DNA of 61,983 nucleotides, counting the filler. It is 6 parts of 6 records of this genome, joined end to end, with 100 filler letters (N's around TTAATTAATTAA, not from the genome) between each part and the next. Parts side by side here need not be neighbours in the genome. Positions count along the whole stretch, not along the records: positions 1 to 15,409 come from SRR20825006_2793; 5 more parts are not named here. The stretch is one strand, 5' to 3'. The notes under the pieces were generated by a model that searched no databases, was not told the DNA's origin, and saw nothing but the letters and a program-made list of their open reading frames with translations. Positions 4,612 through 17,423 of this stretch are shown in pieces (position 1 is the first letter of the stretch; each line of letters begins with the position of its first letter). Made by a program: the position numbers and the translations under genes.

Positions 4612-5268
4612 ATGGCGAAGGCGCAAGAAACCGACACACAGCACAAATGGCATGAAGATATTCAAGCCCTTGTTTTAGGCACACTTTTGGTGGCCCTTGG
4701 CGTGAGCATGTATAAAGCCGCCATGCTGGGCACCGGCGGCATTAACGGCCTTGCCCTTTTGCTGTCTTACACTTCGCCATTTGAATTCGGCCTGCTGTTC
4801 TTTGTGTTGAACCTGCCTTTTTACTGGCTGGCCTATAAACGGCTCGGCGTAGCCTTCACCGTCAAAACATTCGCGGCTGTGGGCCTTGTGTCACTGTTCG
4901 CGCAACTCACCCCGCAATGGATCAGCTTTGATATGCTGCACCCGGTTTATGCCAGCCTTGTGGGCGGTGGCATAATTGGCGTTGGCTTGCTGATCTTGTT
5001 TCGCCATAAATCCGGCTTGGGCGGGGTGAATATTTTGGCGGTTTATCTGCAAGATCGCTATGGCATCCGCGCTGGCTATTTGCAAATGGGTGTGGACGCG
5101 GCAATTTTGTGCGGCTCATTCTTCGTGCTGAGCTGGCAGCAGGTTGCCCTGTCTATCATGGGTGCTGTGGTGCTGAACCTCGTGATCGCCACCAACTTCC
5201 GCCCCGGCCGCTATGTTGGGTTTTCCGGTGCCTTTTTTGCACAAAGCAAAGACGACAAAACGGATTAA
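4612..5268 (+). CDS. YitT-family membrane protein
   Basis: HKWHEDIQAL, TGGINGLALL, LNLPFY and SGLGGVNILA motifs. Start inferred at MAKAQ. Confidence 0.88.
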   Translation: MAKAQETDTQHKWHEDIQALVLGTLLVALGVSMYKAAMLGTGGINGLALLLSYTSPFEFGLLFFVLNLPFYWLAYKRLGVAFTVKTFAAVGLVSLFAQLTPQWISFDMLHPVYASLVGGGIIGVGLLILFRHKSGLGGVNILAVYLQDRYGIRAGYLQMGVDAAILCGSFFVLSWQQVALSIMGAVVLNLVIATNFRPGRYVGFSGAFFAQSKDDKTD

Positions 5269-7979
5269 ACTTCACCCTCATAAAGCGGCAGGCTGACCCT
5301 GAAACAGGCGCCATCGTCTGCCCCTTTAACAAGGTCAATCTTACCCTTCATCCGCGCAATAATTTGCGAGGAGATGGCAAGGCCAAGGCCAGACCCAGTT
5401 TGCCCGCTGCTGGCGCCACGCTGGCCCCGTGCAAATTTTTCAAACACGCGTCGCCGATCCTTTGCAGCAATGCCTGGCCCATTATCCTGAAATTCAATCA
5501 ACAGCCGTTTGCCGCTGGTGCTGAACCGCACCTCAACAAATGGGTGATCCGCATCATTATATTTAATCGCATTGGTGATGAGATTGATAAACACTTGCGC
5601 CAGACGGTCAGCATGCCCCAGCACCAGCGCTTCGGCGGGCACATTATGGCGCTTTATCTGCATCTTCTTCTGCCGCGCCAGGCTTTCACAAACAGATACG
5701 GCACGGTCCAACGCGCTCACCACGTCGACTGGCACATTGGTCCAAACCTTTTCGCCGCGCTCCAACGCGCTGAGATCCAAAATCTCGTCTAACAACTGAG
5801 TTAGCCGCAAACTCTCCGTATGGATGGTCGACAGAAAACGCTGGCGATCATGCGCATCCAATTCATCAGGCTCCAGCAGAATTTCAGAGAAGGAACGAAT
5901 GGAGGTCATCGGGGTGCGCACTTCGTGGCTCACTTGCGACAAAAACTCGTCCTTTTGCTGATCAAGCTCACGCAGCTTGGCATTGGCATCTTGCAATTTC
6001 TCAGCTGTCAGCCGCAGCTCCTCAGACTTCTGCTCCAACTGTTGCGAATATTCTATCACTTGCTGAGTTTCGTCAGCAATCTTCATCACTTCCTGCAAGG
6101 AGATATTGTCGCCAGAAACCACTTGTGAAATCATGACGTGCGCCGAGGCGGCACCGATAGAGCCTGCCAATTCCTTTTCCAGCAAGGCAATAAATTCAGG
6201 CGTGGGTTCCAAGTTGGAACGGCTGCGCCCCTGCTCACGCGCAAAACTGTCGAAAACCGATCCGGCCCGCTCTGCTCCCAGCACGCGCTGAGCCACAAAG
6301 AACAAATCATTGGTGGCAGCGGAAGTGCGCATGAACCGCGTTTCAATGCCCGGCATCCGCCGAAACGCATCCACAAACAACGCGCTTTGAATACGCTCAA
6401 GCACCGATTGGGAGGTAGAAAGCGACACAACGATCAACGCAATCGTGTTGGCAAACAAGCTCCAAAAGACCGAGTGCACCAATGGGTCCAAACCGGTGAG
6501 GCCAAACAAGGCCTGCGGTTTCAAAAACTCAATGCCATAAGGGCCATTTTGCACCCAATGGGCAACGCTGATGCTCGATTCCTCAAAGCTGGGAACGAAC
6601 ATGGAATATGCCCAAACCACAAAGCCAATGGACAGCCCTGCCCCTGCACCCTTTGCCGTGGCATCGCGCCAAAACAAAGCGGCAATGATGGCGGGCAAGG
6701 TTTGGGCCACCCCTGCAAAGGAGATCAGACCAATGCGCGCCAACGCGCCAGAACCATTGGTGAGCCAGAAATAAAGAAAGCCAAGCCCCAAAATCACACA
6801 GATTGAGATACGGCGGCTGGTGAGCAGTAAATCCGTTACCCCACCACTTTCCTCATCATCTCGCCGCCCAGGCAACCGCAACGCAATGGGCACCACAATA
6901 TGGTTGGACACCATGATCGATAGCGCAATGGAGGCAATAATGATCATGGACGTCGCGGACGAGAACCCACCAATAAAGGCAAACAGGGCCAACCCCTCCT
7001 GCCCAAAACTCAAGGGCAAGGTCAATACAAACATGTCTGGGTCACTACCCGGCGGCAACATAGCGGTGCCCACAATGGCGATGGGCAATGTGAAGATGCT
7101 GATCGCAAACAGATAAAGCGGAAATGCCCAACTGGCCGTGCGCAAATGGTTTTCGTTGGAATTTTCAACAACGGTAATCTGAAACTGGCGTGGCAAACAA
7201 ATGATGGCAGCGGCGGAAAGTACCGTCATCGCCACCCAGCGTGAATTGAAGCCACCATATTCAAACGCATTGATCTGCGCCGCATCCGCGCGGGCAAACA
7301 CCTCAGAAAAGCCATCGCCCAGCCCAAACACCACAAATATGCCGACCGCCAACAAGGCAATTAGCTTGATGATCGCCTCGAACGCAATCGCAGCCACCAC
7401 CCCATGATGCTGCTCCTTCGCGTCCACATTTCGCGTGCCGAACAAAATGGTGAAGATGGCCATGGCCACCGCAACGCCTAGTGCCAACCGCACATCGTCC
7501 ACATTCAAGCCCGGTTGATCGACATTATCGCCCAACGTCATAACGTTGAGGCTGGAGGTGATCGCTTTAAGCTGCAGCGCGATGTAAGGCGTGGTGCCGA
7601 TCACAGCAATCAAGGTCACCAACACAGCCAAGCTGGAGCTTTTGCCAAAGCGTGACGAAATCAAATCGGCAAGCGATGTGATCCGCTGAGTACGACCCAC
7701 CCGCACCAGCTTGCGCAACCCGAACCACCAGCCCACAAACACCAAGGTGGGGCCAAGATAAATGGTGAAAATCTCATAGCCCGTGCGGGCGGCAGACCCC
7801 ACGGCACCATAAAAGGTCCAGCTGGTGCAATAAACGGAAATGGCGAGCGTATAAATAAGGGGTGAGCGCAAGAACTTGCCAGCGGACCCTTTGGCCCAGC
7901 GCTCGCTGAAATAAGCCAGCGCAAACAACAGCACTACATAGCCAAGCGCAATCAGAATGATGAGATTGGTGGCGATCAT
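5265..7979 (-). CDS. CrbS/CbrA-like sodium:solute symporter (SLC5)-STAC-histidine kinase
   Basis: SLC5 motif YCTSWTFYGAVG, STAC-like LAGSIGAASA segment, H-box SHEVRTP (His685), and N/G boxes (NAIKYN, DNGPGI, GSGLGL). No PAS or receiver domain is evident. Confidence 0.92.
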   Translation of the reverse strand: MIATNLIILIALGYVVLLFALAYFSERWAKGSAGKFLRSPLIYTLAISVYCTSWTFYGAVGSAARTGYEIFTIYLGPTLVFVGWWFGLRKLVRVGRTQRITSLADLISSRFGKSSSLAVLVTLIAVIGTTPYIALQLKAITSSLNVMTLGDNVDQPGLNVDDVRLALGVAVAMAIFTILFGTRNVDAKEQHHGVVAAIAFEAIIKLIALLAVGIFVVFGLGDGFSEVFARADAAQINAFEYGGFNSRWVAMTVLSAAAIICLPRQFQITVVENSNENHLRTASWAFPLYLFAISIFTLPIAIVGTAMLPPGSDPDMFVLTLPLSFGQEGLALFAFIGGFSSATSMIIIASIALSIMVSNHIVVPIALRLPGRRDDEESGGVTDLLLTSRRISICVILGLGFLYFWLTNGSGALARIGLISFAGVAQTLPAIIAALFWRDATAKGAGAGLSIGFVVWAYSMFVPSFEESSISVAHWVQNGPYGIEFLKPQALFGLTGLDPLVHSVFWSLFANTIALIVVSLSTSQSVLERIQSALFVDAFRRMPGIETRFMRTSAATNDLFFVAQRVLGAERAGSVFDSFAREQGRSRSNLEPTPEFIALLEKELAGSIGAASAHVMISQVVSGDNISLQEVMKIADETQQVIEYSQQLEQKSEELRLTAEKLQDANAKLRELDQQKDEFLSQVSHEVRTPMTSIRSFSEILLEPDELDAHDRQRFLSTIHTESLRLTQLLDEILDLSALERGEKVWTNVPVDVVSALDRAVSVCESLARQKKMQIKRHNVPAEALVLGHADRLAQVFINLITNAIKYNDADHPFVEVRFSTSGKRLLIEFQDNGPGIAAKDRRRVFEKFARGQRGASSGQTGSGLGLAISSQIIARMKGKIDLVKGADDGACFRVSLPLYEGEV

Positions 7980-8227
7980 TGATCACGATCCCGCTCGGAT
8001 CGCCCGGCACGCGGTTCAGGCTCGTCACGCGGCAACAAGCGCGCCAATGCAAATGAAGATGCAATCAAAAAGAACCAAACGCCAAACAGATAGGCAAATA
8101 TGGTGGGCAGGCCAAATATGGTGCCCCCACGATCAAACAAATGCACAATTGGCGGCATAATCAAAATCGCACCAAAGATTGGCAAAAAGAAACCAAACCC
8201 TTCGCTGCGCCGCCTGTTCGCCATCAA
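7976..8227 (-). CDS. Small two-TM membrane protein, probable partner of the SLC5 kinase
   Basis: 83 aa with two hydrophobic helices and a GLP motif. Overlaps both neighbours by 4 nt, suggesting translational coupling. Confidence 0.7.
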   Translation of the reverse strand: MMANRRRSEGFGFFLPIFGAILIMPPIVHLFDRGGTIFGLPTIFAYLFGVWFFLIASSFALARLLPRDEPEPRAGRSERDRDQ

Positions 8228-8607
8228 TCCACCCTTTGCTCGTCACCGATCAGGGCTTTAACAGCGCCCACCACATCGCTATTCGCATAGGGCTTGGTGA
8301 CAAAACTGTTGGCCCCCAACTCCTCGGCAATTTTCCGATCTTGCGCTTGCCCCTTTGCGGTGAGCATCAGCACCGGCAACTTTGCCGTAGCTTCATCTTG
8401 CCGCAATTGTTTAAGCACCTCAAAGCCAGACTTTTTGGGCAACATCACATCCAAGACAACAATGCGCGGCTTGATTTCGCGCACTGCCCGCAATGCGGCT
8501 TCCCCATCTTGAGCGGATCGCGTCGACCACCCCGCACGACGCAAAATAAAGTCGAGAGAGTCCAGAATACTGGGCTCGTCCTCAACGATTAGGACATCTA
8601 TGGTCAC
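8224..8607 (-). CDS. Stand-alone response regulator receiver domain
   Basis: GTG start after a GGAGGAGG RBS. VLIVED, VLDVMLP (phospho-Asp), LTA and TKP motifs are intact. No output domain. Confidence 0.92.
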   Translation of the reverse strand: MTIDVLIVEDEPSILDSLDFILRRAGWSTRSAQDGEAALRAVREIKPRIVVLDVMLPKKSGFEVLKQLRQDEATAKLPVLMLTAKGQAQDRKIAEELGANSFVTKPYANSDVVGAVKALIGDEQRVD

Positions 8608-8669
8608 AAATTCCTCCTCCTCGCAATCGAACCTCCCAATTCGATTACCCGCGAAACATAGGGCGAAAA

Positions 8670-10295
8670 TTACGTCTCGCCAATATCGAAATTTATTTCT
8701 GTCAGGGGTAGCCGCACTGTGTGCGCACCACCCGCCCCTGTAAACATCTCTTCCTGCCGGCTTTCGCACGAGCGACGAATACACATACGGCAGGTGGGAC
8801 CAACCGGCACATCCACCTGTGGATTATCAAGGCTCATGCCTTTGCCATAAACCGTTTGATCCGCATAAAGCACATCACACACCAACATCACCGATGTATA
8901 AAGCGGGCGCGATTGAAACCGATCTGCGCGCTTGGCAAATGATTTTGCCAACATCAAATAGCGCCCTCCATCGGGATAGCTCACCGTTTGCCGCACAACT
9001 TCATTTGGATGACGAAACGCGTCAAACAATGTCCAAAGTGGACAACCATGCCCCGCATTTGGCCATGCCATACCGGGCAGCGGAAAATGCTTCGACAAGC
9101 GACCAGAAGGATCGGCACGAAGAAAGCCAAACGGAATGCCCTCTTCCCCGGGGCGCCGCAGCGTGACCAACCGATGGGCAACCTGCTCATAGCTGGCCGC
9201 ATATCGCTGGCTCAGATAATCAATGTCATAAGAGCTTTGCTCAGCTTCACGCAAAAAATCCTCATATGGAAAAATCAGCGCCCCTGCCAAATAAGAGCCA
9301 AGCGCCCGAATAGCCAACCGCCTTGACGCGGGTGTGCTCAACCGATCATCTTTGACCAATGCGGTGAGTTCTTCCCGCGCTTTCAACTCGCCATAAAGCC
9401 GCGCCATTTGAAACTGTCGAGTGGCCAAGGTGGCGCTGCCTTGAAACCAAAGCACCTTATCTTTCGCATCAAACCGATATTGCATCGGGAAACCTGTTTC
9501 TGATCGCGCCAACTGCGCAACCCGCTTGATCTCAATGCCAAATTCACCACGCAACTGCGCCACCAAATCCGCCTCAACCACGCTGCCGCGTTGCGAAAAC
9601 CCTTCGCGCAATTGCGCCGCCTTGTCTTCAAGCGAAGGAAAATAATTCTTCTGCTCAACGATCAAATCATCCAGCTCGCGCGCAGGCGTAAGCGAACGGT
9701 TACGACCCGCCTCACCCTCAAATTGATCAATCAAGGTCTGCGCCACATCAGAAAGGGCACGACTTTCCCGCGAGACCATGGAATGAAAGCGCTGCTGCTC
9801 TTCAGCTTCCAAATCTGGCACATCTGTCAAAATCTCCGCAGACGACCGCACCGCGGTAATCTGAGACAACATTTGGTGCAAAAGGTCCGCTAAAAGCGGA
9901 TCAGATTTAAGCCGATTTGAATAGGCTTCTGCCTCCGCCACCGCGTCAGCATATGCCTGATAAGTTTGGTGAAGCGCACGCGCTGCCCGCGGATTGGTCG
10001 CCACCAACTCCCGAGCTTCAGCCGCCCCCATTTTGAGCGATTCTAATGCTGGATCGGAGAAGATTTCTTCAAGCGCACTGAGCAATCTTTGCTCATTTTC
10101 CCCTGTCAATTCATCCAGCGCCACATTCAATTTTTGTGCAATCGCCTGCAAAAGCGAGCCACCAACATCACGTTTATTGGCTTCAATCAGATTGAGATAG
10201 CTTGGCGAAATGCCCACCAATTTCGCAAAATTACTCTGCGAGTATCCCAAGGATTTCCGCTGGTTACGGATTTTCAGACCGATTGGCGCCCGCAT
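8670..10295 (-). CDS. ScfR/RamB-family regulator with inserted HisKA(DHp)-like segment
   Basis: XRE HTH (GISPSYLNLIEANKR), EQVAHRLVTLRRP, GCPLW and CRMCIRRSC. It is 70 aa longer than the paralogue at 46-1461, largely because of a DHp-like insert. Confidence 0.85.
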   Translation of the reverse strand: MRAPIGLKIRNQRKSLGYSQSNFAKLVGISPSYLNLIEANKRDVGGSLLQAIAQKLNVALDELTGENEQRLLSALEEIFSDPALESLKMGAAEARELVATNPRAARALHQTYQAYADAVAEAEAYSNRLKSDPLLADLLHQMLSQITAVRSSAEILTDVPDLEAEEQQRFHSMVSRESRALSDVAQTLIDQFEGEAGRNRSLTPARELDDLIVEQKNYFPSLEDKAAQLREGFSQRGSVVEADLVAQLRGEFGIEIKRVAQLARSETGFPMQYRFDAKDKVLWFQGSATLATRQFQMARLYGELKAREELTALVKDDRLSTPASRRLAIRALGSYLAGALIFPYEDFLREAEQSSYDIDYLSQRYAASYEQVAHRLVTLRRPGEEGIPFGFLRADPSGRLSKHFPLPGMAWPNAGHGCPLWTLFDAFRHPNEVVRQTVSYPDGGRYLMLAKSFAKRADRFQSRPLYTSVMLVCDVLYADQTVYGKGMSLDNPQVDVPVGPTCRMCIRRSCESRQEEMFTGAGGAHTVRLPLTEINFDIGET

Positions 10296-10319
10296 TTTTC
10301 ATGCCCTCAAACCACACGG

Positions 10320-10390
10320 CTTGTAAAATAATTTACAAGCATTTGTAAAAATATGTACACGATTTTACAAAATTTTCCTTATATTACAAG
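10320..10390. promoter_or_regulatory. Cluster of TTGTAAA/TTTACAA sites in the divergent promoter (probable ScfR operator array)
   Basis: Perfect CTTGTAAA-N4-TTTACAAG (10320-10339), TTTGTAAAA-N12-TTTTACAAA (10342-10371) and ATTACAAG (10383-10390). Confidence 0.7.
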
Positions 10391-10491
10391 CATCTATTGA
10401 AAAGTTTTCAAAACTACCTCTTAATTTAGCACGATGCAGCGCATGGGAGTTCATTTTATGGAAGCGCGCATCAATTCAAAGGAGGAGAATA

Positions 10492-11841
10492 ATGACTGAA
10501 CGCAATGATGGCCCTTCACGCCGTCGAGTTCTTAAGGGCGCAGCAGCTGGTCTTGTGACAGCTGGTATTGCCCCGACAATCATCACCAGCCGCGCCTATG
10601 GCCAGGAATATCGCAACAAACCAAGCGGTGACACAGTTACCCTTGGCTTCAACGTGCCTCAAACCGGCCCATATGCCGATGAAGGCGCGGACGAGTTGCG
10701 CGCTTACGAACTCGCTGTTGAACATTTGAATGGCGAAGGCGACGGCGGCATGCTGAACACCATGCAGCCATCTAACCTTAAAGGGAACGGCATTTTGGGC
10801 AAGAAAGTTGCCTATGTGACCGGTGACACCCAAACAAAATCTGATGCTGCGCGTGCTTCTGCCAAGCGGATGATTGAAAAAGATGGCGCACTGATGATCA
10901 CTGGCGGTTCATCATCTGGCGTTGCGGTTGCGGTGCAAGGCCTTTGCCAAGAGATGGGCACCATCTTCATGGCCGGCTTGACCCACTCAAACGACACCAC
11001 AGGTAAAGATAAGCGGCGCTATGGTTTCCGCCACTTCTTTAACGCTTACATGTCTGGTGCTGCTTTGGGCCCTGTTCTGGCCGACGAATATGGCACAGAA
11101 CGCCGCGCATATCACCTAACAGCCGACTATAACTGGGGCTGGACGCAAGAAGAATCCATGAAAAACGCCACTGAGGCATTGGGTTGGGAAACAGTGAACA
11201 CTGTTAAAACCCCTGTGGGCGCTGGTGACTTCTCTCAATATATCACCCCTGTGTTGAACTCAGGCGCTGATGTATTGATCCTGAACCACTATGGCCGTGA
11301 CATGGTGAACTCTTTGACCCAGGCTGTTCAGTTCGGCCTGCGCGATAAGCAAGTGAACGGCAAAGATTTCCAAATTGTTGTGCCGCTCTTCTCACGCTTG
11401 ATGGCGCAAGGTGCTGGCGACAACATTAAAGGCATTTTGGGTTCAACCAACTGGAACTGGTCTTTGCAAGATGCTGGTTCACAAGCCTTTGTGAAATCAT
11501 TTGGTGCAAAATACGGCTTCCCACCATCAATGGCGGCGCACACTTGCTATGTGCAAGCGCTTCTTTACGCCGATGCATGTGAGCGGGCAGGAACATTCTA
11601 CCCACCAGATGTGATCCGTGCGCTTGAAGGCCACAAATTTGATGGCATGGGCAATGGCCCAACTGAATATCGTGCAGAAGATCACCAATGCTTCAAAGAC
11701 GTGTTGGTTGTGCGCGGTAACGAAAACCCAACATCTCAATTCGACTTGCTCAATGTGGTGCAACAAGTGCCGCGTTCACAGGTTGAATATGATGCCTCCA
11801 TCTTCGGTGGCGAGTTGGGGCCATACGAAGTCTCCATGTAA
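10492..11841 (+). CDS. ABC transporter substrate-binding protein (LivK/Peripla_BP_6 type), Tat-exported
   Basis: Tat motif SRRRVLK; PQTGPYA, ITGGSSSG and ADYNWG motifs; GGAGGAG RBS. Confidence 0.9.
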   Translation: MTERNDGPSRRRVLKGAAAGLVTAGIAPTIITSRAYGQEYRNKPSGDTVTLGFNVPQTGPYADEGADELRAYELAVEHLNGEGDGGMLNTMQPSNLKGNGILGKKVAYVTGDTQTKSDAARASAKRMIEKDGALMITGGSSSGVAVAVQGLCQEMGTIFMAGLTHSNDTTGKDKRRYGFRHFFNAYMSGAALGPVLADEYGTERRAYHLTADYNWGWTQEESMKNATEALGWETVNTVKTPVGAGDFSQYITPVLNSGADVLILNHYGRDMVNSLTQAVQFGLRDKQVNGKDFQIVVPLFSRLMAQGAGDNIKGILGSTNWNWSLQDAGSQAFVKSFGAKYGFPPSMAAHTCYVQALLYADACERAGTFYPPDVIRALEGHKFDGMGNGPTEYRAEDHQCFKDVLVVRGNENPTSQFDLLNVVQQVPRSQVEYDASIFGGELGPYEVSM

Positions 11842-11858
11842 TCTTGGACTTTTGGTTT

Positions 11859-11883
11859 GTCGGGGCGGCAGCGCTGCCCCGGC
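11859..11883 (+). terminator. Intra-operon hairpin after the substrate-binding gene
   Basis: GTCGGGGCGGC-agc-GCTGCCCCGGC stem. Confidence 0.5.
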
Positions 11884-11916
11884 CTTTAGATTTTGCCGGT
11901 GGGGGGAGTTAACCAC

Positions 11917-12945
11917 ATGGATGCGATATTACTGCAATTGTTAAACGGGCTGGATAAGGGCGGCGCCTATGCGCTGATCGCCTTGGGCCTGACACTGGTT
12001 TTCGGCACTTTGGGCGTGGTCAACTTTGCCCATGGTGCTTTGTTTATGCTCGGCGCTTTTTGTGCGGTCACCCTGCGCAAATTGCTGACCTTGGAGCAAG
12101 TTGTTTTAGACACAGAAAATTTGACCGCTTGGGGCACCCCCACTGAAATTCGCACCCCCTATGTGGAAGCATGGTTTGGCGATTTTGGCGCCGTTTTGGT
12201 CAATTATTCTGTGCCGCTCGCCATTCTCTTGGCCATCCCCGTTATGCTTGCCGTTGGCGTGGCCATGGAACGCGGCTTGATCAAACATTTTTATCGCCGT
12301 CCCCACGCAGAACAGATTTTGGTGACCTTCGGTCTGGCCATTGTTTTGCAGGAAATCATCAAACATTTCTTTGGCGCGAACCCTATTCCGCAGCCAATGC
12401 CTGAAAACTTCTCTGGTGCGGCTGACATCGGCGTGATGCTCGGCATGGACCCGAATGTGATCGTTTACCCATGGTGGCGCCTTGTTTACTTCGCTTTCTC
12501 CGTAATCGTGATCGGCGCAGTATTTGCCTTCTTGCAATTCACCACCTTCGGCATGGTTGTGCGCGCTGGCATGGCGGACCGAGAAACCGTTGGCCTGATT
12601 GGCATCGATATCGACAAGCGCTTCACCGCAATGTTCGGGCTTGCCGCCGTGGTCGCTGGCGTCGCAGGCGTCATGTATACGCCGCTGTTGCCGCCTGATT
12701 ATCACCTTGGCATGGACTTCCTTGTGCTCACCTTCGTCGTGGTTGTTGTGGGCGGCATGGGCTCTTTGCCCGGCGCGGTTGCCGCAGGCTTCCTGCTCGG
12801 TATTTTGCAAAGCTTCGCCTCAATGACTGAAGTGAAAGCCATTATTCCAGGCATCGACCAAATCATCATCTATCTTGTTGCCGTGATCATTTTGCTGGTG
12901 CGTCCTCGCGGGCTTATGGGCCGCAAAGGCGTGATGGAAAGCTAA
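11917..12945 (+). CDS. Branched-chain amino acid-type ABC permease (LivH-like)
   Basis: YALIALGLTLVFG, VNFAHG and VVGGMGS motifs. Confidence 0.92.
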   Translation: MDAILLQLLNGLDKGGAYALIALGLTLVFGTLGVVNFAHGALFMLGAFCAVTLRKLLTLEQVVLDTENLTAWGTPTEIRTPYVEAWFGDFGAVLVNYSVPLAILLAIPVMLAVGVAMERGLIKHFYRRPHAEQILVTFGLAIVLQEIIKHFFGANPIPQPMPENFSGAADIGVMLGMDPNVIVYPWWRLVYFAFSVIVIGAVFAFLQFTTFGMVVRAGMADRETVGLIGIDIDKRFTAMFGLAAVVAGVAGVMYTPLLPPDYHLGMDFLVLTFVVVVVGGMGSLPGAVAAGFLLGILQSFASMTEVKAIIPGIDQIIIYLVAVIILLVRPRGLMGRKGVMES

Positions 12946-12957
12946 GGGAGAACAACA

Positions 12958-14121
12958 ATGAACCTTCAAGGCATCTTTTCCATGTCACGCAAAGATTTGA
13001 CCACACTGGTGATCTTTTCAATCGTTGTGTTGGCACTACCCATCTGGCTGCAACCGTTTGGTGCAGCCTATCCCGACCTGATGCAGCGCTTTGCCATCTT
13101 CGGCATTTTGGCCATCGGCTTCAACATTCTGTTCGGCCTGACAGGATATCTCAGCTTTGGCCACGCAGCGTTTCTAGGCGTTGGCTCTTATACCGCGGTT
13201 TGGACATTTAAACTGTTCTCGATGAACCCAATCCCAGCGCTGTTTTTCGCTGTGATCATGTCTGGCCTCTTCGCCTTCATCATCGGTTTTGTGAGCTTGC
13301 GCCGCTCAGGCATCTACTTCTCGATCCTGACGCTCGCCTTCGCGCAAATGTCGTACAATCTGGCTTATTCCGTGTTGACCCCAATCACCAATGGTGAAAC
13401 AGGCTTGCAACTGGAATCCAGCGATCCACGCATCATCGACAGTATGTTTGTGGGTGAACAAGCTGGCCTGCCCGTTTCCAACTTCTTCGGTTTGGAAATG
13501 TCAGGCATCCCCGGCTTTTACTTCTGCGCGATCTTCTTGATCATCGGGTTCTTCATTACCCAACGCATCTTTGCCTCACCATTCGGCATGATGCTGCGTG
13601 GCATCAAATCCAACCAAACCCGGATGAACTATACCGGCTTCAACACACGGCCCTATACGCTGACCGCCTTTGTGATCTCTGGCATGTATGCTGGCTTAGC
13701 TGGTGGTTTGATGGCTGTAACCGACCCATTGGCAGGCGCTGAGCGTATGCAATGGACAGCTTCAGGTGAAATCGTGTTGATGACCATCCTTGGCGGTGTG
13801 GGCACCCTGTTGGGCCCGATTGTTGGCGCATGGTTGATCAAATATTTCGAAAACATCTTCTCAAGCTTCAACGAGAACGTTTTGCACAATCTCTTTGGCT
13901 TCCTGCCTGATGGCGTTGAAAGCGTTGTGGTGGAAATCACCTCAATGTTTGTTGGCGAAGGCTGGCACCTCACCCTTGGCTTGGTGTTCGTGCTTGTCGT
14001 GACCTTCTTGCCCGGCGGCATCATGGAAGGCTATCGCCGGATCACTGCAATGTTCACTGGCGGCGGCGGAGATGGCAAAAAAGCCAACGCCGACGACAAG
14101 CAAACACAACCAGCCGAATAG
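12958..14121 (+). CDS. Branched-chain amino acid-type ABC permease (LivM-like)
   Basis: [24 protein letters not shown] and [11 protein letters not shown] motifs. Confidence 0.92.
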
Positions 14122-14138
14122 CTAAAGGAGCACATATT

Positions 14139-14909
14139 ATGACGACCGCTAACGAAAATGTCGTTCTTCACGTTGCCGATGTGCACAAAACCTTTGGCGG
14201 GTTGCACGCACTGAGCGACATTGACCTTCAAATCGAAGAAGGCAAAACCCACGCCATCATCGGCCCCAACGGCGCCGGCAAATCCACTCTCCTAAACGTT
14301 GTGGTGGGCCGCTTGGCCCCCACACGTGGCGCGGTGGTATTTGATGGCCAAGTGCTGACAGGAAAGCAGCCACACGAAATCAACCAGGTTGGCGTGGCCC
14401 GCGTGTTCCAAACACCGGAAATTTTCCCCGAGCTTTCCGTGCTGCAAAATGTGATGGCACCTGCTTTCGCAAAGCGTGACGGCGCGTTCAAGCTGAACTT
14501 CTTGTCATCATTGGCAGACGAAAAGCAAATCCGCGAAGAGGCGGAGCATATGCTGGAAGATATCGGCCTGATCCACCAAAAAGACATGCATGCTGGCTCC
14601 CTTTCCCGCGGCGATAAACGCCGTATGGAACTGGCCATGTGCTTGATGCAGCATCCAAAGCTTTTACTGCTGGACGAGCCAACCGCTGGCATGTCTCGCC
14701 ACGACACAAACACCACCATTGAGCTTTTGAAAAAGATCAAAGAGCGCGGCATGACCAAGGTGATCATTGAGCACGACATGCATGTGGTGTTCTCGCTGGC
14801 CGATAAAATCTCGGTGCTTGCAGGTGGGCGCATTATCGCCGAAGGTACGCCTGAGGAAGTGCGCAACAATCCAAAAGTGCAAGAAGCATATTTGGGAGGA
14901 GCACACTAA
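14139..14909 (+). CDS. ABC ATP-binding protein (LivG-like)
   Basis: GPNGAGKS, LLLDEP, IEHDM and C-terminal VQEAYLG. Confidence 0.93.
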   Translation: MTTANENVVLHVADVHKTFGGLHALSDIDLQIEEGKTHAIIGPNGAGKSTLLNVVVGRLAPTRGAVVFDGQVLTGKQPHEINQVGVARVFQTPEIFPELSVLQNVMAPAFAKRDGAFKLNFLSSLADEKQIREEAEHMLEDIGLIHQKDMHAGSLSRGDKRRMELAMCLMQHPKLLLLDEPTAGMSRHDTNTTIELLKKIKERGMTKVIIEHDMHVVFSLADKISVLAGGRIIAEGTPEEVRNNPKVQEAYLGGAH

Positions 14910-15409
14910 TGAATGCAATGACAACGGAAAGCAATATGATGAGCGATGCACAACCAAAACAAAAAGAGGCACAGCCTTTTCTGTCGGTAAAGGATGTGCA
15001 CGCCTATTACGGTGAAAGCTATATCGTGCAAGGCGTGAGCCTTGAATTGCCTCATGGTGAGATTCTAGCTTTGCTGGGCCGCAACGGCGCGGGCAAAACC
15101 TCTACCCTGCGCACGTTAGCGCGGGTGGACGACCCACAACTGACCCAAGGTGAAATTTGGCTGGATGGCCAACCCCTGCACAAAATGCGCGCCCACGAGG
15201 CGGCGCAAGCAGGCTTGCAATTGGTGCCGGAAGATCGTCGCATCATTCAAGGCCTAACCGTGGAAGAAAACCTGACCCTTGCCCAAGTGGCACCGGGCCA
15301 TGGATGGACCATCGAACAAGTTTATGAGCGTTTCCCACGCCTCGCTGAGCGCCGCAACCAGGAAGGCGTGACCCTTTCTGGCGGTGAACAGCAAATGCTG
15401 GCCATTGGC
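14909..15409 (+). CDS. ABC ATP-binding protein (LivF-like), truncated at contig end
   Basis: GRNGAGKT, VPEDRRI and LSGGEQQML. Confidence 0.9.
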
Positions 15410-15509
15410 NNNNNNNNNNNNNNNNNNNNNNNNNNNNNNNNNNNNNNNNNNNNTTAATTAATTAANNNNNNNNNNNNNNNNNNNNNNNNNNNNNNNNNNN
15501 NNNNNNNNN
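15410..15509. other. Artificial contig spacer (N-run with TTAATTAATTAA)
   Basis: 100 nt of N with a six-frame stop linker; genes on both sides are truncated. Confidence 0.98.
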
Positions 15510-16127
15510 GGCACCAAGGAAATCAATCGCGACAACTGGAACTGGGACGAGGTTGATAACAATCCGTTCTTCTGCCCCGATGCAGCCGCTGTTCCGGTGT
15601 TCGAGGAATATCTTGATGGTCTGCGCAAGGACGGATCATCGGTCGGTGCAGTAATAGAAGTTGTCTGTTCGGGCGTTCCGGTCGGGCTGGGTGACCCGGT
15701 CTATGACAAACTTGATGCTGATCTGGCCAAAGCGATGATGACAATCAACGCAGTCAAGGGTGTTGAAATTGGCAACGGGTTTGAGGCCGCCGAACTGACC
15801 GGCATCGAAAATGCCGATGAAATGCGCATGGGCGAAGATGGCAAGCCGGTCTTTGGCTCCAACCATGCAGGCGGCATTCTGGGCGGGATTTCATCCGGGC
15901 AGGATGTTGTTTTGCGCTTTGCCGTCAAACCGACCAGCTCGATCCTGACACCGCGCAAAAGTGTTGATATTTACGGCAAGGATGTCGATGTCGTCACCAA
16001 GGGCCGCCATGATCCGTGTGTTGGCATTCGTGCCGTTCCGGTTGGCGAGGCCATGGCAGCCATCGTTCTGGCTGATCATCTGTTGCGCCATCGCGGCCAG
16101 TGTGATGGCTGGAACAGCAACAAGTAA
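15510..16127 (+). CDS. aroC: Chorismate synthase, C-terminal part (5' truncated)
   Basis: [32 protein letters not shown] and GRHDPCVG motifs; frame open from the contig edge. Confidence 0.96.
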
Positions 16128-16199
16128 TCAACAACTAATTCCTGCGTGAAATCGCACAAATAGTCTGTCACAAGCAGCCTGTTGCACCGTCATCGGTGT

Positions 16200-17423
16200 A
16201 TGAACCCGACATTGTACAAAGCCCTGATTCTGCTTGCATCCGCGAACAAACCGGCCCCGGCCTCCAAGGCAGCCGGTCGGGATGCTGGCTTGGGCAATAG
16301 AACAGTTCTTTATCCTGATGAGCCGGTCGATCTGCCCGATTGGGGCATTGCGGCCCTGCCCGCCATGATCCTTGGCGCGGCGCCGCAAAGCTGCCTTTTC
16401 GTCAGCGATCTGACCATCGAGCAACCCGAAGGCGACGGCGATAGCAACGCCGGTTCCTCTGATGACGAAAAAGACGAAAGCGTGGGCAGCGTTTCCTTCT
16501 CGCTCACGGTCGACAGTGCCCCTGATCCAACCGCCAAAATCACTCAACGCCAGATCACCTGGCGATTGGCGATGCCGGTGACCGCCTTCCGACAGGTTAC
16601 CACCAACGCCAACAGCACACCGGTGCGTGCGCCTGTAATCAGAACGAAACTGGTCCTGCGCGACGTCGTCTGTGATGTCGAGCTTGGCCTGCTTGAAATG
16701 GCGGGCATCACCCAGCCGCTTCTGGTCGGACGCGATATTCTGTCCAATCGCTTCCTGATCCGCCCGGATCACGATAAGACATCATCAAACCCACCCTCAC
16801 CCTCGGCAACGCTTGCCCCGACGCCCGAGGACAAACCTGCCGAAACGGCGTCTTCTGCGCCATTGGCATCAGATACAGGCACCAGCAACCAACAATCCGC
16901 TGCAACCACGCCAGACATGCCGTCGAGCACGACCGATACTGGCAATGCGACACCAACCGCAGCCGATGCCCGCCCAAAAGCCCCTGCACCTTCTGCAACA
17001 GGCGACAGCACCAATACGGTAACGGATAGCGGCACCAACAGTTCGGCCACACAGCCTGCCGGTCAAACCGGTGCGGACGCAGGAAGCACGTCCGTCTCAT
17101 CTGCAGCAGGTTCGATACCAACAGATGACACAACGGCATCTTCTAAGCCCGACGCCACCACTGGCACACTTGCCGATACCACGGCGGCAGAGTCTCCAAC
17201 GGGCAGTAATGCGCCAGCGCCAACCGAAAACGGAACAGAAGCCGCAGCCACAGCGATAACTGCGCCCAAAAATGACGCTGCAACCGATGACAGCAAAGCC
17301 GACGATAACAGCCAGGACCCTGCCACAACTTCAACGGCAACCGTTAACGATGACGCATCCTCAATATCTGGGGCCCAGAATGAAGATGATGAATCCACAT
17401 CATCGCCGCCTCCGGCAACCTAG
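16200..17423 (+). CDS. RimK-associated (ATP-dependent Zn protease/retropepsin-like) domain, degenerate, with long T/S/A/D-rich tail
   Basis: Resembles the family at EPVDLPDWGI, RAPVIRTKLVL and PLLVGRDILSNRFLIRP but has no DTG motif; about 210-aa low-complexity C-terminus. Start uncertain. Confidence 0.5.
   Translation: MNPTLYKALILLASANKPAPASKAAGRDAGLGNRTVLYPDEPVDLPDWGIAALPAMILGAAPQSCLFVSDLTIEQPEGDGDSNAGSSDDEKDESVGSVSFSLTVDSAPDPTAKITQRQITWRLAMPVTAFRQVTTNANSTPVRAPVIRTKLVLRDVVCDVELGLLEMAGITQPLLVGRDILSNRFLIRPDHDKTSSNPPSPSATLAPTPEDKPAETASSAPLASDTGTSNQQSAATTPDMPSSTTDTGNATPTAADARPKAPAPSATGDSTNTVTDSGTNSSATQPAGQTGADAGSTSVSSAAGSIPTDDTTASSKPDATTGTLADTTAAESPTGSNAPAPTENGTEAAATAITAPKNDAATDDSKADDNSQDPATTSTATVNDDASSISGAQNEDDESTSSPPPAT

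Follow-up and report, generated by a model that had tools for sequence, protein, structure and literature searches.

A kinase-type DHp hairpin in an ScfR-family transcription factor encoded with an SLC5-type histidine kinase and a stand-alone receiver: a candidate receiver docking site

Introduction

How does a two-component signal reach DNA when the response regulator of the system consists of a receiver domain only? This question is raised by a locus in a window of 61,983 nucleotides (six parts of six records of one genome, joined end to end with 100 filler letters between the parts; positions count along the whole stretch), in which an ScfR-family transcription factor is encoded together with a stand-alone receiver and a sensor histidine kinase with an SLC5-type membrane part. 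Two-component signals are known to reach DNA either via a fusion of receiver and output domain or via a relay that finishes on a second receiver. In the present locus the ScfR-type regulator contains a putative helical hairpin, related to the dimerization and histidine phosphotransfer (DHp) domain of the kinase, on which the receiver may well dock. An output-less receiver that is apparently read by a kinase-type DHp hairpin inside a one-component metabolite sensor would be an undescribed route to DNA.

The initial annotation of the locus, made from the letters alone, stated that no description of such an architecture was known. This still holds for the literature on ScfR proteins, SLC5/STAC kinases, single-domain receivers with DHp or XRE partners, HisKA-HTH-DUF2083 proteins and Pden_1785, supplementary files aside; the one trace found is a passing remark on gene neighbourhood in PMC10370305, which is not pursued in the available part of that paper. 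Pden_1785 itself is a candidate member, and the cassette is thus probably also present in Paracoccus.

Results

Relationship of the regulator segment to the kinase DHp domain

Residues 130-190 of the regulator align with residues 675-735 of the kinase in an ungapped BLASTP match with 19/61 identities (E = 3e-7, for a single pairwise comparison), which places His140 of the regulator on His685 of the kinase, as the initial annotation had claimed for the H-box. Both peptides cited there are present in the translated proteins. The two codons, derived from the open reading frame (ORF) starts at 10295 and 7979, lie at 9876-9878 and 5925-5927, respectively, and Ser144 of the regulator occupies position +4 after the histidine. 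The Pfam HisKA model matches residues 134-190 with E = 0.021 (15.3 bits) when the whole protein is scanned and with E = 0.00069 (20.1 bits) when the segment is excised, and the NCBIfam CreC model matches residues 136-215 with E = 2e-5. No HATPase_c match is found in the regulator with Pfam at E ≤ 1; the regulator is not a kinase, despite one family member being named 'histidine kinase' in UniRef.

Searches with a profile of regulator residues 120-215 from 34 Devosiaceae (hereafter A2) point to a specific relationship. Genome-wide searches were run on Maritalea mobilis CGMCC 1.7002, the source of a locus (L001) that is 99% identical to the regulator region of the window. In this genome A2 finds the regulator itself (1e-45), the DHp domain of the neighbouring kinase (8.4e-9) and nothing else at E ≤ 10. 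The same genome holds 22 HisKA matches, 21 of them above the cut-off, including four domains that outscore that of the SLC5 kinase against Pfam HisKA. The cognate kinase is also recovered by A2 in a Devosia metagenome-assembled genome (MAG; 1.5e-8), a Limnobacter MAG (2.6e-8) and a Thalassospira genome (1.9e-6). When pan-clade profiles are compared with hhalign, built from 150 non-redundant regulator segments and 86 non-redundant SLC5-kinase DHp segments, the two families align over 60 columns with a probability of 99.3% (E = 6.8e-21). The similarity between the regulator segment and the kinase DHp is therefore real and specific rather than a product of chance, and the segment can be regarded as a genuine DHp homologue with its histidine in register. 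In the AlphaFold2 (AF2) model, of moderate confidence, it forms two long helices, residues 133-158 and 164-198, connected by a short loop.

Distribution and conservation of the hairpin

A search with A2 of 1.84 billion cluster representatives yields 657 representatives at E ≤ 1e-3, of which 228 reach E ≤ 1e-10. Among the 150 matches listed, the segment lies at about residues 120-215 and has the consensus DRLxxDPfLxxxxHxmLsxvTAIRSxaEIL...RF. A Pfam scan of 24 family members finds HTH_3 in 24/24, ScfRs in 21/24 and a sub-threshold HisKA match in 6/24. The hairpin regulators fall into two length classes, one of approximately 520-540 residues and one of approximately 420-470 residues with a weak M78 domain; Microbaculum and Pontivivens are the sources of the members named in UniRef. 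Outside the HTH and Fe-S regions, no part of the protein is better conserved in 29 close homologues than the segment, and D132, P133, L134, L139, H140, L143, T147, R150, S151, E154, I155, L156 and F170 are invariant in the 29 Devosiaceae. The hairpin is an old domain that recurs in hundreds of regulators across Hyphomicrobiales, Rhodobacterales, Rhodospirillales and Burkholderiales. The initial annotation had taken it for a copy of the DHp domain of the neighbouring kinase; with an identity of approximately 26% between the two DHp segments and this wide distribution, a recent local copy has to be abandoned.

The histidine is retained in 206 of the 214 hairpin-bearing loci that were collected (see below), the remaining eight having L (2), Y (2), Q, R, N or F at this position, and R, Y, L or F replaces it in at least 6 of another 149 representatives. 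Three of the non-His loci (L173, L177 and L219) have no kinase nearby and one further lies on a contig that is too short. Among loci with enough flanking sequence, the receiver/kinase pair is absent from 3/6 non-His loci and from 7/175 His loci (Fisher p 0.002). Position +4 after the histidine is S, T or N in 175/179 loci, position +10 is R in 168/179 and position +15 is I in 179/179. Position +1 is variable (E 73, Q 67, R 14, D 8 and S 8, n = 179) and acidic in only 81/179, which fits a DHp domain without an ATP-binding partner. The kinase side retains the canonical S-H-E-x-R-T-P motif, and a kinase-like H-E-L-R-T box is found in two regulators (L212 and L217). In Rhodocyclus tenuis (L173) no receiver or SLC5 kinase is encoded nearby, A2 finds no kinase DHp in the genome, and the segment is degenerate with Gln replacing His, suggesting that the hairpin decays where the kinase is gone. 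Taken together, the histidine and the hydroxyl group at +4 appear to be selected while kinase and receiver are present, with a few lineages dispensing with the histidine.

Gene linkage across genomes

Three scans of contigs, with one genome per species, gave 238 loci, of which 233 are unique and 214 bear the hairpin. The first covers Devosiaceae, and the second 80 Rhodobacterales loci (Ruegeria, Roseovarius, Sulfitobacter, Leisingera, Phaeobacter and others). The third, with an alignment of 7 closer sequences as query, covers Rhodospirillales (Thalassospira, Nisaea, Kiloniellaceae), Hyphomicrobiaceae, Reyranella and Burkholderiales-type Betaproteobacteria (Limnobacter, Lautropia, Casimicrobiaceae); it also gave 19 ordinary ScfR genes without hairpin (Sorangium, Acidobacteriota and others). 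Linkage was counted in the 181 hairpin-bearing loci with at least 4.5 kb downstream, and a receiver was called at an identity of at least 40%. The receiver is present in 174/181 of these loci, the SLC5 kinase in 172/181 and both in 171/181; by comparison, a receiver, kinase or substrate-binding protein (SBP) accompanies 0/19 of the ScfR genes without hairpin. The co-occurrence that the initial annotation proposed to survey is thus borne out. In the Rhodobacterales set the receiver is found in 79/80 loci and the kinase in 78/80, the exceptions being a contig that stops inside the receiver and a locus with neither gene within 8 kb. In most hairpin loci a Liv-type ATP-binding cassette (ABC) transporter is also encoded divergently, on the far side of an intergenic region that contains TTGTAAA boxes, and in most loci the SBP of this transporter is 69-82% identical across orders. 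The kinase, receiver and hairpin regulator constitute a conserved module of Alpha- and Betaproteobacteria.

In one Devosia MAG (L011) the regulator sits after isocitrate lyase, beside a RamB-like gene (4656-9629), while the receiver, the small protein and the kinase still adjoin the transporter elsewhere in the genome; the relocated regulator retains the hairpin and its histidine. The grouping of the RamB-like gene, isocitrate lyase and the hairpin regulator hints at an action of the regulator on the glyoxylate shunt.

Further proteins with matches to the hairpin profile were observed. In three loci (L216, L222 and L223) minus-strand ORFs of 227-270 residues, approximately 5.5 kb upstream of the regulator, give weak matches (1e-5 to 3e-7) and carry a motif like ITAxRGALEILRD, representing another short HisKA-like protein in Rhodospirillales-type loci. 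In the Limnobacter MAG (G004, contig 2, 119741-119950) a second protein, of 914 residues, matches with 7.7e-9; it scores like the cognate kinase and is probably a paralogous SLC5-type kinase.

The stand-alone receiver and its modelled complex with the hairpin

The initial annotation described the response regulator as a bare receiver, and its approximately 127 residues indeed match Response_reg only and include no output domain. Its active site comprises the acidic pair E9/D10, the phospho-acceptor D53, T83 and K105. In 31 receiver orthologues from all clades, which measure 120-127 residues, all five active-site residues are invariant, and an output domain is absent from 31/31. The cassette holds no second receiver; in the remaining M. 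mobilis genome, which was checked for close paralogues, no receiver exceeds 36% identity, the next most similar one being 35-36% identical.

When two copies of the hairpin (residues 120-215) are co-folded with the receiver, the complex scores 0.73 (0.72-0.73 in three runs), whereas the highest-scoring of three controls reaches 0.07. Of the solved complexes used for calibration, 51/78 attain the mark applied, as do 2/108 mismatched pairs; the job type of this calibration set differs from that of the present runs, which used no custom alignments. The runs share at least 80% of their contacts, with a predicted local distance difference test (pLDDT) value of the partner of at least 84. On the hairpin side the interface consists of residues 139-140, 143-148, 150-152 and 154-155, helix 2 and the second copy, and on the receiver side of helix 1 (residues 11-24), residues 55 and 84-86 and the loop 105-110. 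In this co-fold, which the initial annotation had suggested as a check, His140 lies next to residues 11, 55, 84-86 and 105 lining the active site of the receiver. The receiver contacts both of the co-folded hairpin copies (residues 181-189 in copy 2). The modelled interface corresponds to the classical kinase-receiver geometry. As kinase-receiver complexes have already been solved, the model shows a likeness to these complexes, which may itself derive from their structures, rather than binding.

Other domains of the regulator and candidate operator boxes

The regulator consists of an HTH_3 domain (residues 9-63; E = 4.2e-13), a helical linker, the hairpin at approximately 130-198, a Peptidase_M78/IrrE-like domain (274-376; E = 4.1e-12) and a C-terminal ScfRs domain (378-517; E = 1e-38, 133 bits against a cut-off of 24). 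Its best solved relative is PrpR (6cz6_A, E = 1.6e-76; Foldseek E = 8e-25). Against the RamB equivalog model NF038139 it scores 300.5 bits, relative to a cut-off of 700, in two stretches that are split at the hairpin. Residues Cys418, C502, C505 and C510 are invariant in 29 homologues and also conserved in the short class; a C-X2-C-X4-C motif plus one further Cys forms the [4Fe4S] ligand set of MtPrpR, according to the available part of PMC6765138. The same source describes MtPrpR as tetrameric, with a disordered region DII (81-152) between the HTH domain and DIII, and it is the place of DII that the hairpin occupies. The regulator can thus be assigned to the ScfR family, with predicted acyl-CoA binding.

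Between the regulator and the divergent transporter, TTGTAAA/TTTACAA boxes are found at 10319-10340, 10342-10371 and 10379-10391. The 6-mer TGTAAA/TTTACA occurs in 168/181 of the intergenic regions between regulator and SBP genes, in all clades, as a count without shuffled control. Paired operator boxes are usual for the ScfR family, as far as the available part of PMC10370305 describes them.

Organization of the locus

The features of the locus are listed in Table 1. The four minus-strand genes are arranged head to tail in the order regulator, receiver, 83-residue protein and kinase, and the ORF of the 83-residue protein abuts or overlaps the stop of the receiver and the start of the kinase. 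The small protein has no match in Pfam or NCBIfam; by tblastn, most Devosiaceae loci and some others have it between the receiver and kinase genes.

Table 1. Features of the hairpin regulator locus and its surroundings (window positions)
Feature	Position	Strand	Basis
XRE/ScfR-type regulator, 541 aa	8670-10295	minus	Pfam scan
DHp-like (HisKA-related) helix-loop-helix, regulator residues 130-198	9702-9908	minus	BLASTP, HisKA scan, profiles, AF2
Stand-alone receiver, 127 aa, conserved GTG start at 8607	8224-8607	minus	Pfam Response_reg, E 4e-26
83-aa protein with long hydrophobic stretch	7976-8227	minus	ORF call
SLC5-type sensor kinase, 904 aa	5265-7979	minus	Pfam and solved-chain match
Divergent intergenic region with repeated TTGTAAA/TTTACAA boxes, candidate operators	10296-10491		Repeat search
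Liv-type ABC transporter, divergent from regulator	10492-15457	plus	Pfam, NCBIfam
SBP of the Liv-type transporter, with twin-arginine translocation (TAT) signal	10492-11841	plus	Pfam, NCBIfam

The kinase contains an SLC5-like membrane part (approximately residues 1-530), a linker and, according to Pfam, HisKA (675-742, at 5754-5957; E = 9.7e-17) and HATPase_c (789-900; E = 7.8e-25) domains, and it has no receiver domain of its own. No solute-symporter match is found in Pfam at E ≤ 1, and no model of the STAC linker domain surfaced in the general Pfam and NCBIfam scans; residues 1-533 match a solved chain annotated as 'histidine kinase' (10ed_A, E = 1.7e-69 over residues 6-464). Among the NCBIfam models, the kinase core is nearest to PnpS/PhoR/CreC and the receiver to PhoB/CreB-type receivers.

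The Liv-type transporter set comprises the SBP, two permeases and two ATPases, the last of which is interrupted by a run of N. Its substrate could not be named from solved relatives, as these are generic Liv/urea-type binding proteins. Two papers on fitness data and GapMind mention nothing on this transporter in their available text, supplements being outside this scope, and a supposed identity with a Phaeobacter D-lactate ABC transporter was not confirmed and was dropped.

A paralogue of the regulator at 46-1461 was said in the initial annotation to be an ScfR protein lacking the insert. Both points agree with the sequence comparison and with the lack of a further A2 match in the M. mobilis genome. 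The designation can be made more exact, since the equivalent M. mobilis gene diverges from genes for propionyl-CoA carboxylase beta and alpha and methylmalonyl-CoA mutase: the paralogue is PccR-like.

Discussion

A proposed model for signal transfer from the receiver to the regulator

Docking of the receiver on the DHp hairpin of the regulator is considered the best explanation for the conserved cassette, and is held with moderate confidence. The SLC5-type 'transceptor' histidine kinase would phosphorylate a receiver that has no output domain, and the output would be supplied in trans by the ScfR-family regulator. The hairpin between the HTH domain and the Fe-S/acyl-CoA-sensing core of the regulator would serve as docking site, on which the receiver, most likely in its phosphorylated form, binds with the geometry used on the kinase, His140 and Ser144 facing its active site. 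Docking would alter the oligomeric state of the regulator or its DNA binding at the TTGTAAA boxes, which lie between the regulator operon and the divergent ABC transporter. In this way one factor would join an extracellular or transport-coupled signal with the intracellular acyl-CoA status, the latter through acyl-CoA/Fe-S sensing. The homology of hairpin and DHp, the conservation of the motif, the linkage across orders, the intact active site of the receiver, the Fe-S ligands and the conserved boxes are shown by the sequence comparisons; physical docking, its dependence on phosphorylation and its effect on DNA binding are what we infer from them. The phosphate may move to His140 or be hydrolysed there, and phosphotransfer or dephosphorylation would then be a possible extra function of the hairpin.

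Several observations weigh against this explanation. Although HisKA is matched in the region indicated by the initial annotation, both scores of the regulator lie under the gathering score of 26.9 bits, and the orthologous segments, which match HisKA in 31/34 cases with a best E of 3e-5, all remain below it as well. The Devosiaceae-based A2 profile misses the cognate kinase in Leisingera. The expected two-helix hairpin is indeed modelled, but with a pLDDT of approximately 50-70 in the full-length AF2 model and 73.5 when modelled alone. Foldseek searches with the 96-residue hairpin model return nothing at E ≤ 0.001 (best E 0.33), with kinase DHp chains appearing only among weak rows, including the RetS-GacS co-complex 7n0e; the search is uninformative because a helical hairpin is too simple to discriminate. 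A sequence search of the PDB with the segment profile gives no kinase, and its best match, ParG (E = 0.011), is regarded as a product of chance. The co-fold controls were unrelated proteins and not other receivers. In 10/181 hairpin-bearing loci the receiver or kinase is missing from the neighbourhood (L011, L090, L173, L176, L177, L180, L206, L207, L210 and L219). The histidine, which the initial annotation expected to be conserved, is widely kept but not universal, and four of its eight variants, L043 (L), L060 (Y), L174 (R) and L211 (N), retain both receiver and kinase. In addition, the kinase may have a DNA-binding partner encoded elsewhere in the genome.

The comparison of hairpins within and between loci is a further point on this side. 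In 117 non-redundant regulator/kinase pairs, the hairpins of the same locus share on average 16.16 of 61 identities and those of other loci 16.19 (p 0.58; p 0.29 with shuffles within clades), and in the predicted contact columns the values are 6.18 and 6.19. As the same locus gives no excess, the comparison provides no sign that the two hairpins covary at a common, co-evolving surface for the receiver. The initial annotation had read the identities at positions +7, +11, +14 and +15 after the histidine as a signal of receiver specificity; they are near-invariant in both families and carry no lineage-specific signal. Residues at these positions are also near the general HisKA consensus, and the residues common to both hairpins are old and fixed in both families.

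Alternative explanations

A true His-Asp-His relay, from His685 via receiver Asp53 to His140, with phospho-His140 switching DNA binding, was the stronger reading in the initial annotation; it would be a special case of docking and is regarded as possible but rather doubtful. It would agree with the retention of the histidine in 206/214 loci, with a hydroxyl or amide residue at +4 in 175/179, with the enrichment of histidine loss where receiver or kinase is missing (p 0.002) and with the co-folded position of His140 against receiver active-site residues; the DHp-only proteins Spo0B and ChpT do accept phosphate from receivers. However, the cassette holds no second receiver to carry the phosphate onward, and we know of no precedent for a relay that ends on a phospho-His in a DNA-binding protein. 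Most of all, the four loci that have lost the histidine and kept receiver and kinase imply that phosphotransfer to this residue cannot be a general requirement, and the representatives with R, Y, L or F in its place (at least 6/149) point the same way. Lineages without the histidine favour docking or phospho-sensing as the common function. The motif also recalls a receiver phosphatase, in which the hairpin would bind the phosphorylated receiver and hydrolyse its phosphate via H-x-x-x-S/T while the real output lies elsewhere. The HisKA phosphatase motif is H-E/D-x-x-T/N, and the DHp domain of EnvZ alone has phosphatase activity. The nearly invariant S/T/N at +4 (175/179) would suit this function, but an acidic residue at +1 is found in only 81/179, it would be an unusual function for a protein that binds DNA and senses a ligand, and no other output of the receiver is evident in the cassette. 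Of the explanations considered here, it is the least probable.

Alternatively, the receiver might have no direct part in the function of the hairpin. DHp domains are dimerization modules, and the hairpin may be a mere dimerization or tetramerization module taken from a kinase, the regulator controlling the transcription of the two-component operon and transporter and the receiver acting elsewhere. The absence of covariation between the hairpins and the ten loci without a receiver/kinase pair are consistent with this, as are the tetrameric state of MtPrpR and the disorder of its corresponding DII (81-152), given in the available part of PMC6765138. Such a module would leave unexplained why the H-box register, the histidine and the Ser/Thr at +4 are conserved across orders, why the hairpin is specifically akin to the SLC5-kinase DHp and decays after loss of the kinase, and why the receiver constantly lacks an output domain; this explanation is therefore judged unlikely. 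Somewhat less likely again is a mixed four-helix bundle of the regulator hairpin and the kinase DHp, by which the kinase would sequester the regulator or phosphorylate His140 in trans and the receiver would compete or serve as a phosphate sink. Heterodimeric DHp pairing exists, and transporter-linked sequestration of regulators is a known logic; moreover, the hairpins are homologous over both helices, and the RetS-GacS co-complex is among the weak Foldseek rows. On the other hand, the identity is just 26% with differing core positions, and the co-fold with the receiver already yields a confident canonical interface.

Comparison with known systems

With the characterised ScfR proteins (MtPrpR, RamB, PccR and MccR) the regulator shares the XRE-type HTH, the M78/IrrE-like domain, the ScfRs C-terminal domain and the four Fe-S cysteines. 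These proteins sense acyl-CoA as one-component systems, and their DII linker is short and disordered; in the present regulator a conserved DHp hairpin takes the place of DII, and the regulator gene is linked to those of a kinase and a receiver. On the kinase side, the fusion of a transporter-like membrane domain to HisKA and HATPase domains resembles CrbS/CrbR, CbrA/CbrB and RpuS/RpuR, and the small ORF just upstream of the kinase recalls cbrX, which has the same position relative to cbrA. According to the available accounts, however, the partners of CrbS, CbrA and RpuS are response regulators that bind DNA, and CrbS itself is of the hybrid type. The present system differs from these SLC5/STAC kinases in that the kinase lacks a receiver domain and is paired with a bare receiver, and a DHp domain resides on a DNA-binding protein. 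The possibility that RpuS/R is the same system was rejected: its available description involves RpuR-dependent activation at a promoter repeat and mentions no XRE/ScfR partner.

DivL carries a Tyr in place of the histidine, as a few members of the present family do. In the DivL-DivK pair of Caulobacter, a DHp surface senses the phosphorylation of a single-domain receiver and the usual flow of information is reversed, as described in the available part of PMC4211667. DivL differs from the present regulator in being a complete pseudokinase whose target is another kinase; the present DHp lies inside a DNA-binding, ligand-sensing transcription factor and its histidine is mostly kept. Spo0B and ChpT likewise contain a DHp-type hairpin without kinase activity that exchanges phosphate with receivers. 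In those systems a second receiver, which is part of a DNA-binding regulator, takes over the phosphate, and neither protein is known to bind DNA, whereas the present cassette holds one receiver only.

Implications

If receiver docking takes place, the cassette would represent a new wiring of a membrane transceptor to a metabolic regulator, a natural AND/OR gate for supply from outside versus acyl-CoA inside. If, beyond docking, the relay is true, a two-component pathway would end on a histidine of an Fe-S/acyl-CoA-sensing transcription factor and combine the transceptor signal with the status of central carbon metabolism; such a relay would be widespread in the marine Roseobacter group, Devosiaceae, Rhodospirillales and some Burkholderiales. 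The cassette is common: the family counts 657 cluster representatives, and 171 of the sampled loci are complete. Ruegeria, Phaeobacter and Thalassospira are culturable and genetically workable genera, and the idea is therefore directly testable. There is also a risk of mis-annotation, as the names given to family members include 'RamB', 'XRE regulator' and even 'histidine kinase'.

Other features of the window

A run of N separates the last ABC ATPase gene from a chorismate synthase gene (14909-16127) and looks like a gap or masked stretch rather than a biological feature. Because of its position, the ORFs on both sides are incomplete: that of the ATPase has no end, and that of chorismate synthase matches profile positions 173-327 only. 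Two further ORFs have no Pfam match. One of 346 residues at 1855-2895 has a GC content of 0.41, compared with about 0.52-0.55 around it, and may be foreign DNA. The other, of 413 residues at 16182-17423 (region 16164-17423), has a C-terminal half formed by a long tract of low complexity, in which Ser, Thr, Ala, Asp and Pro are abundant.

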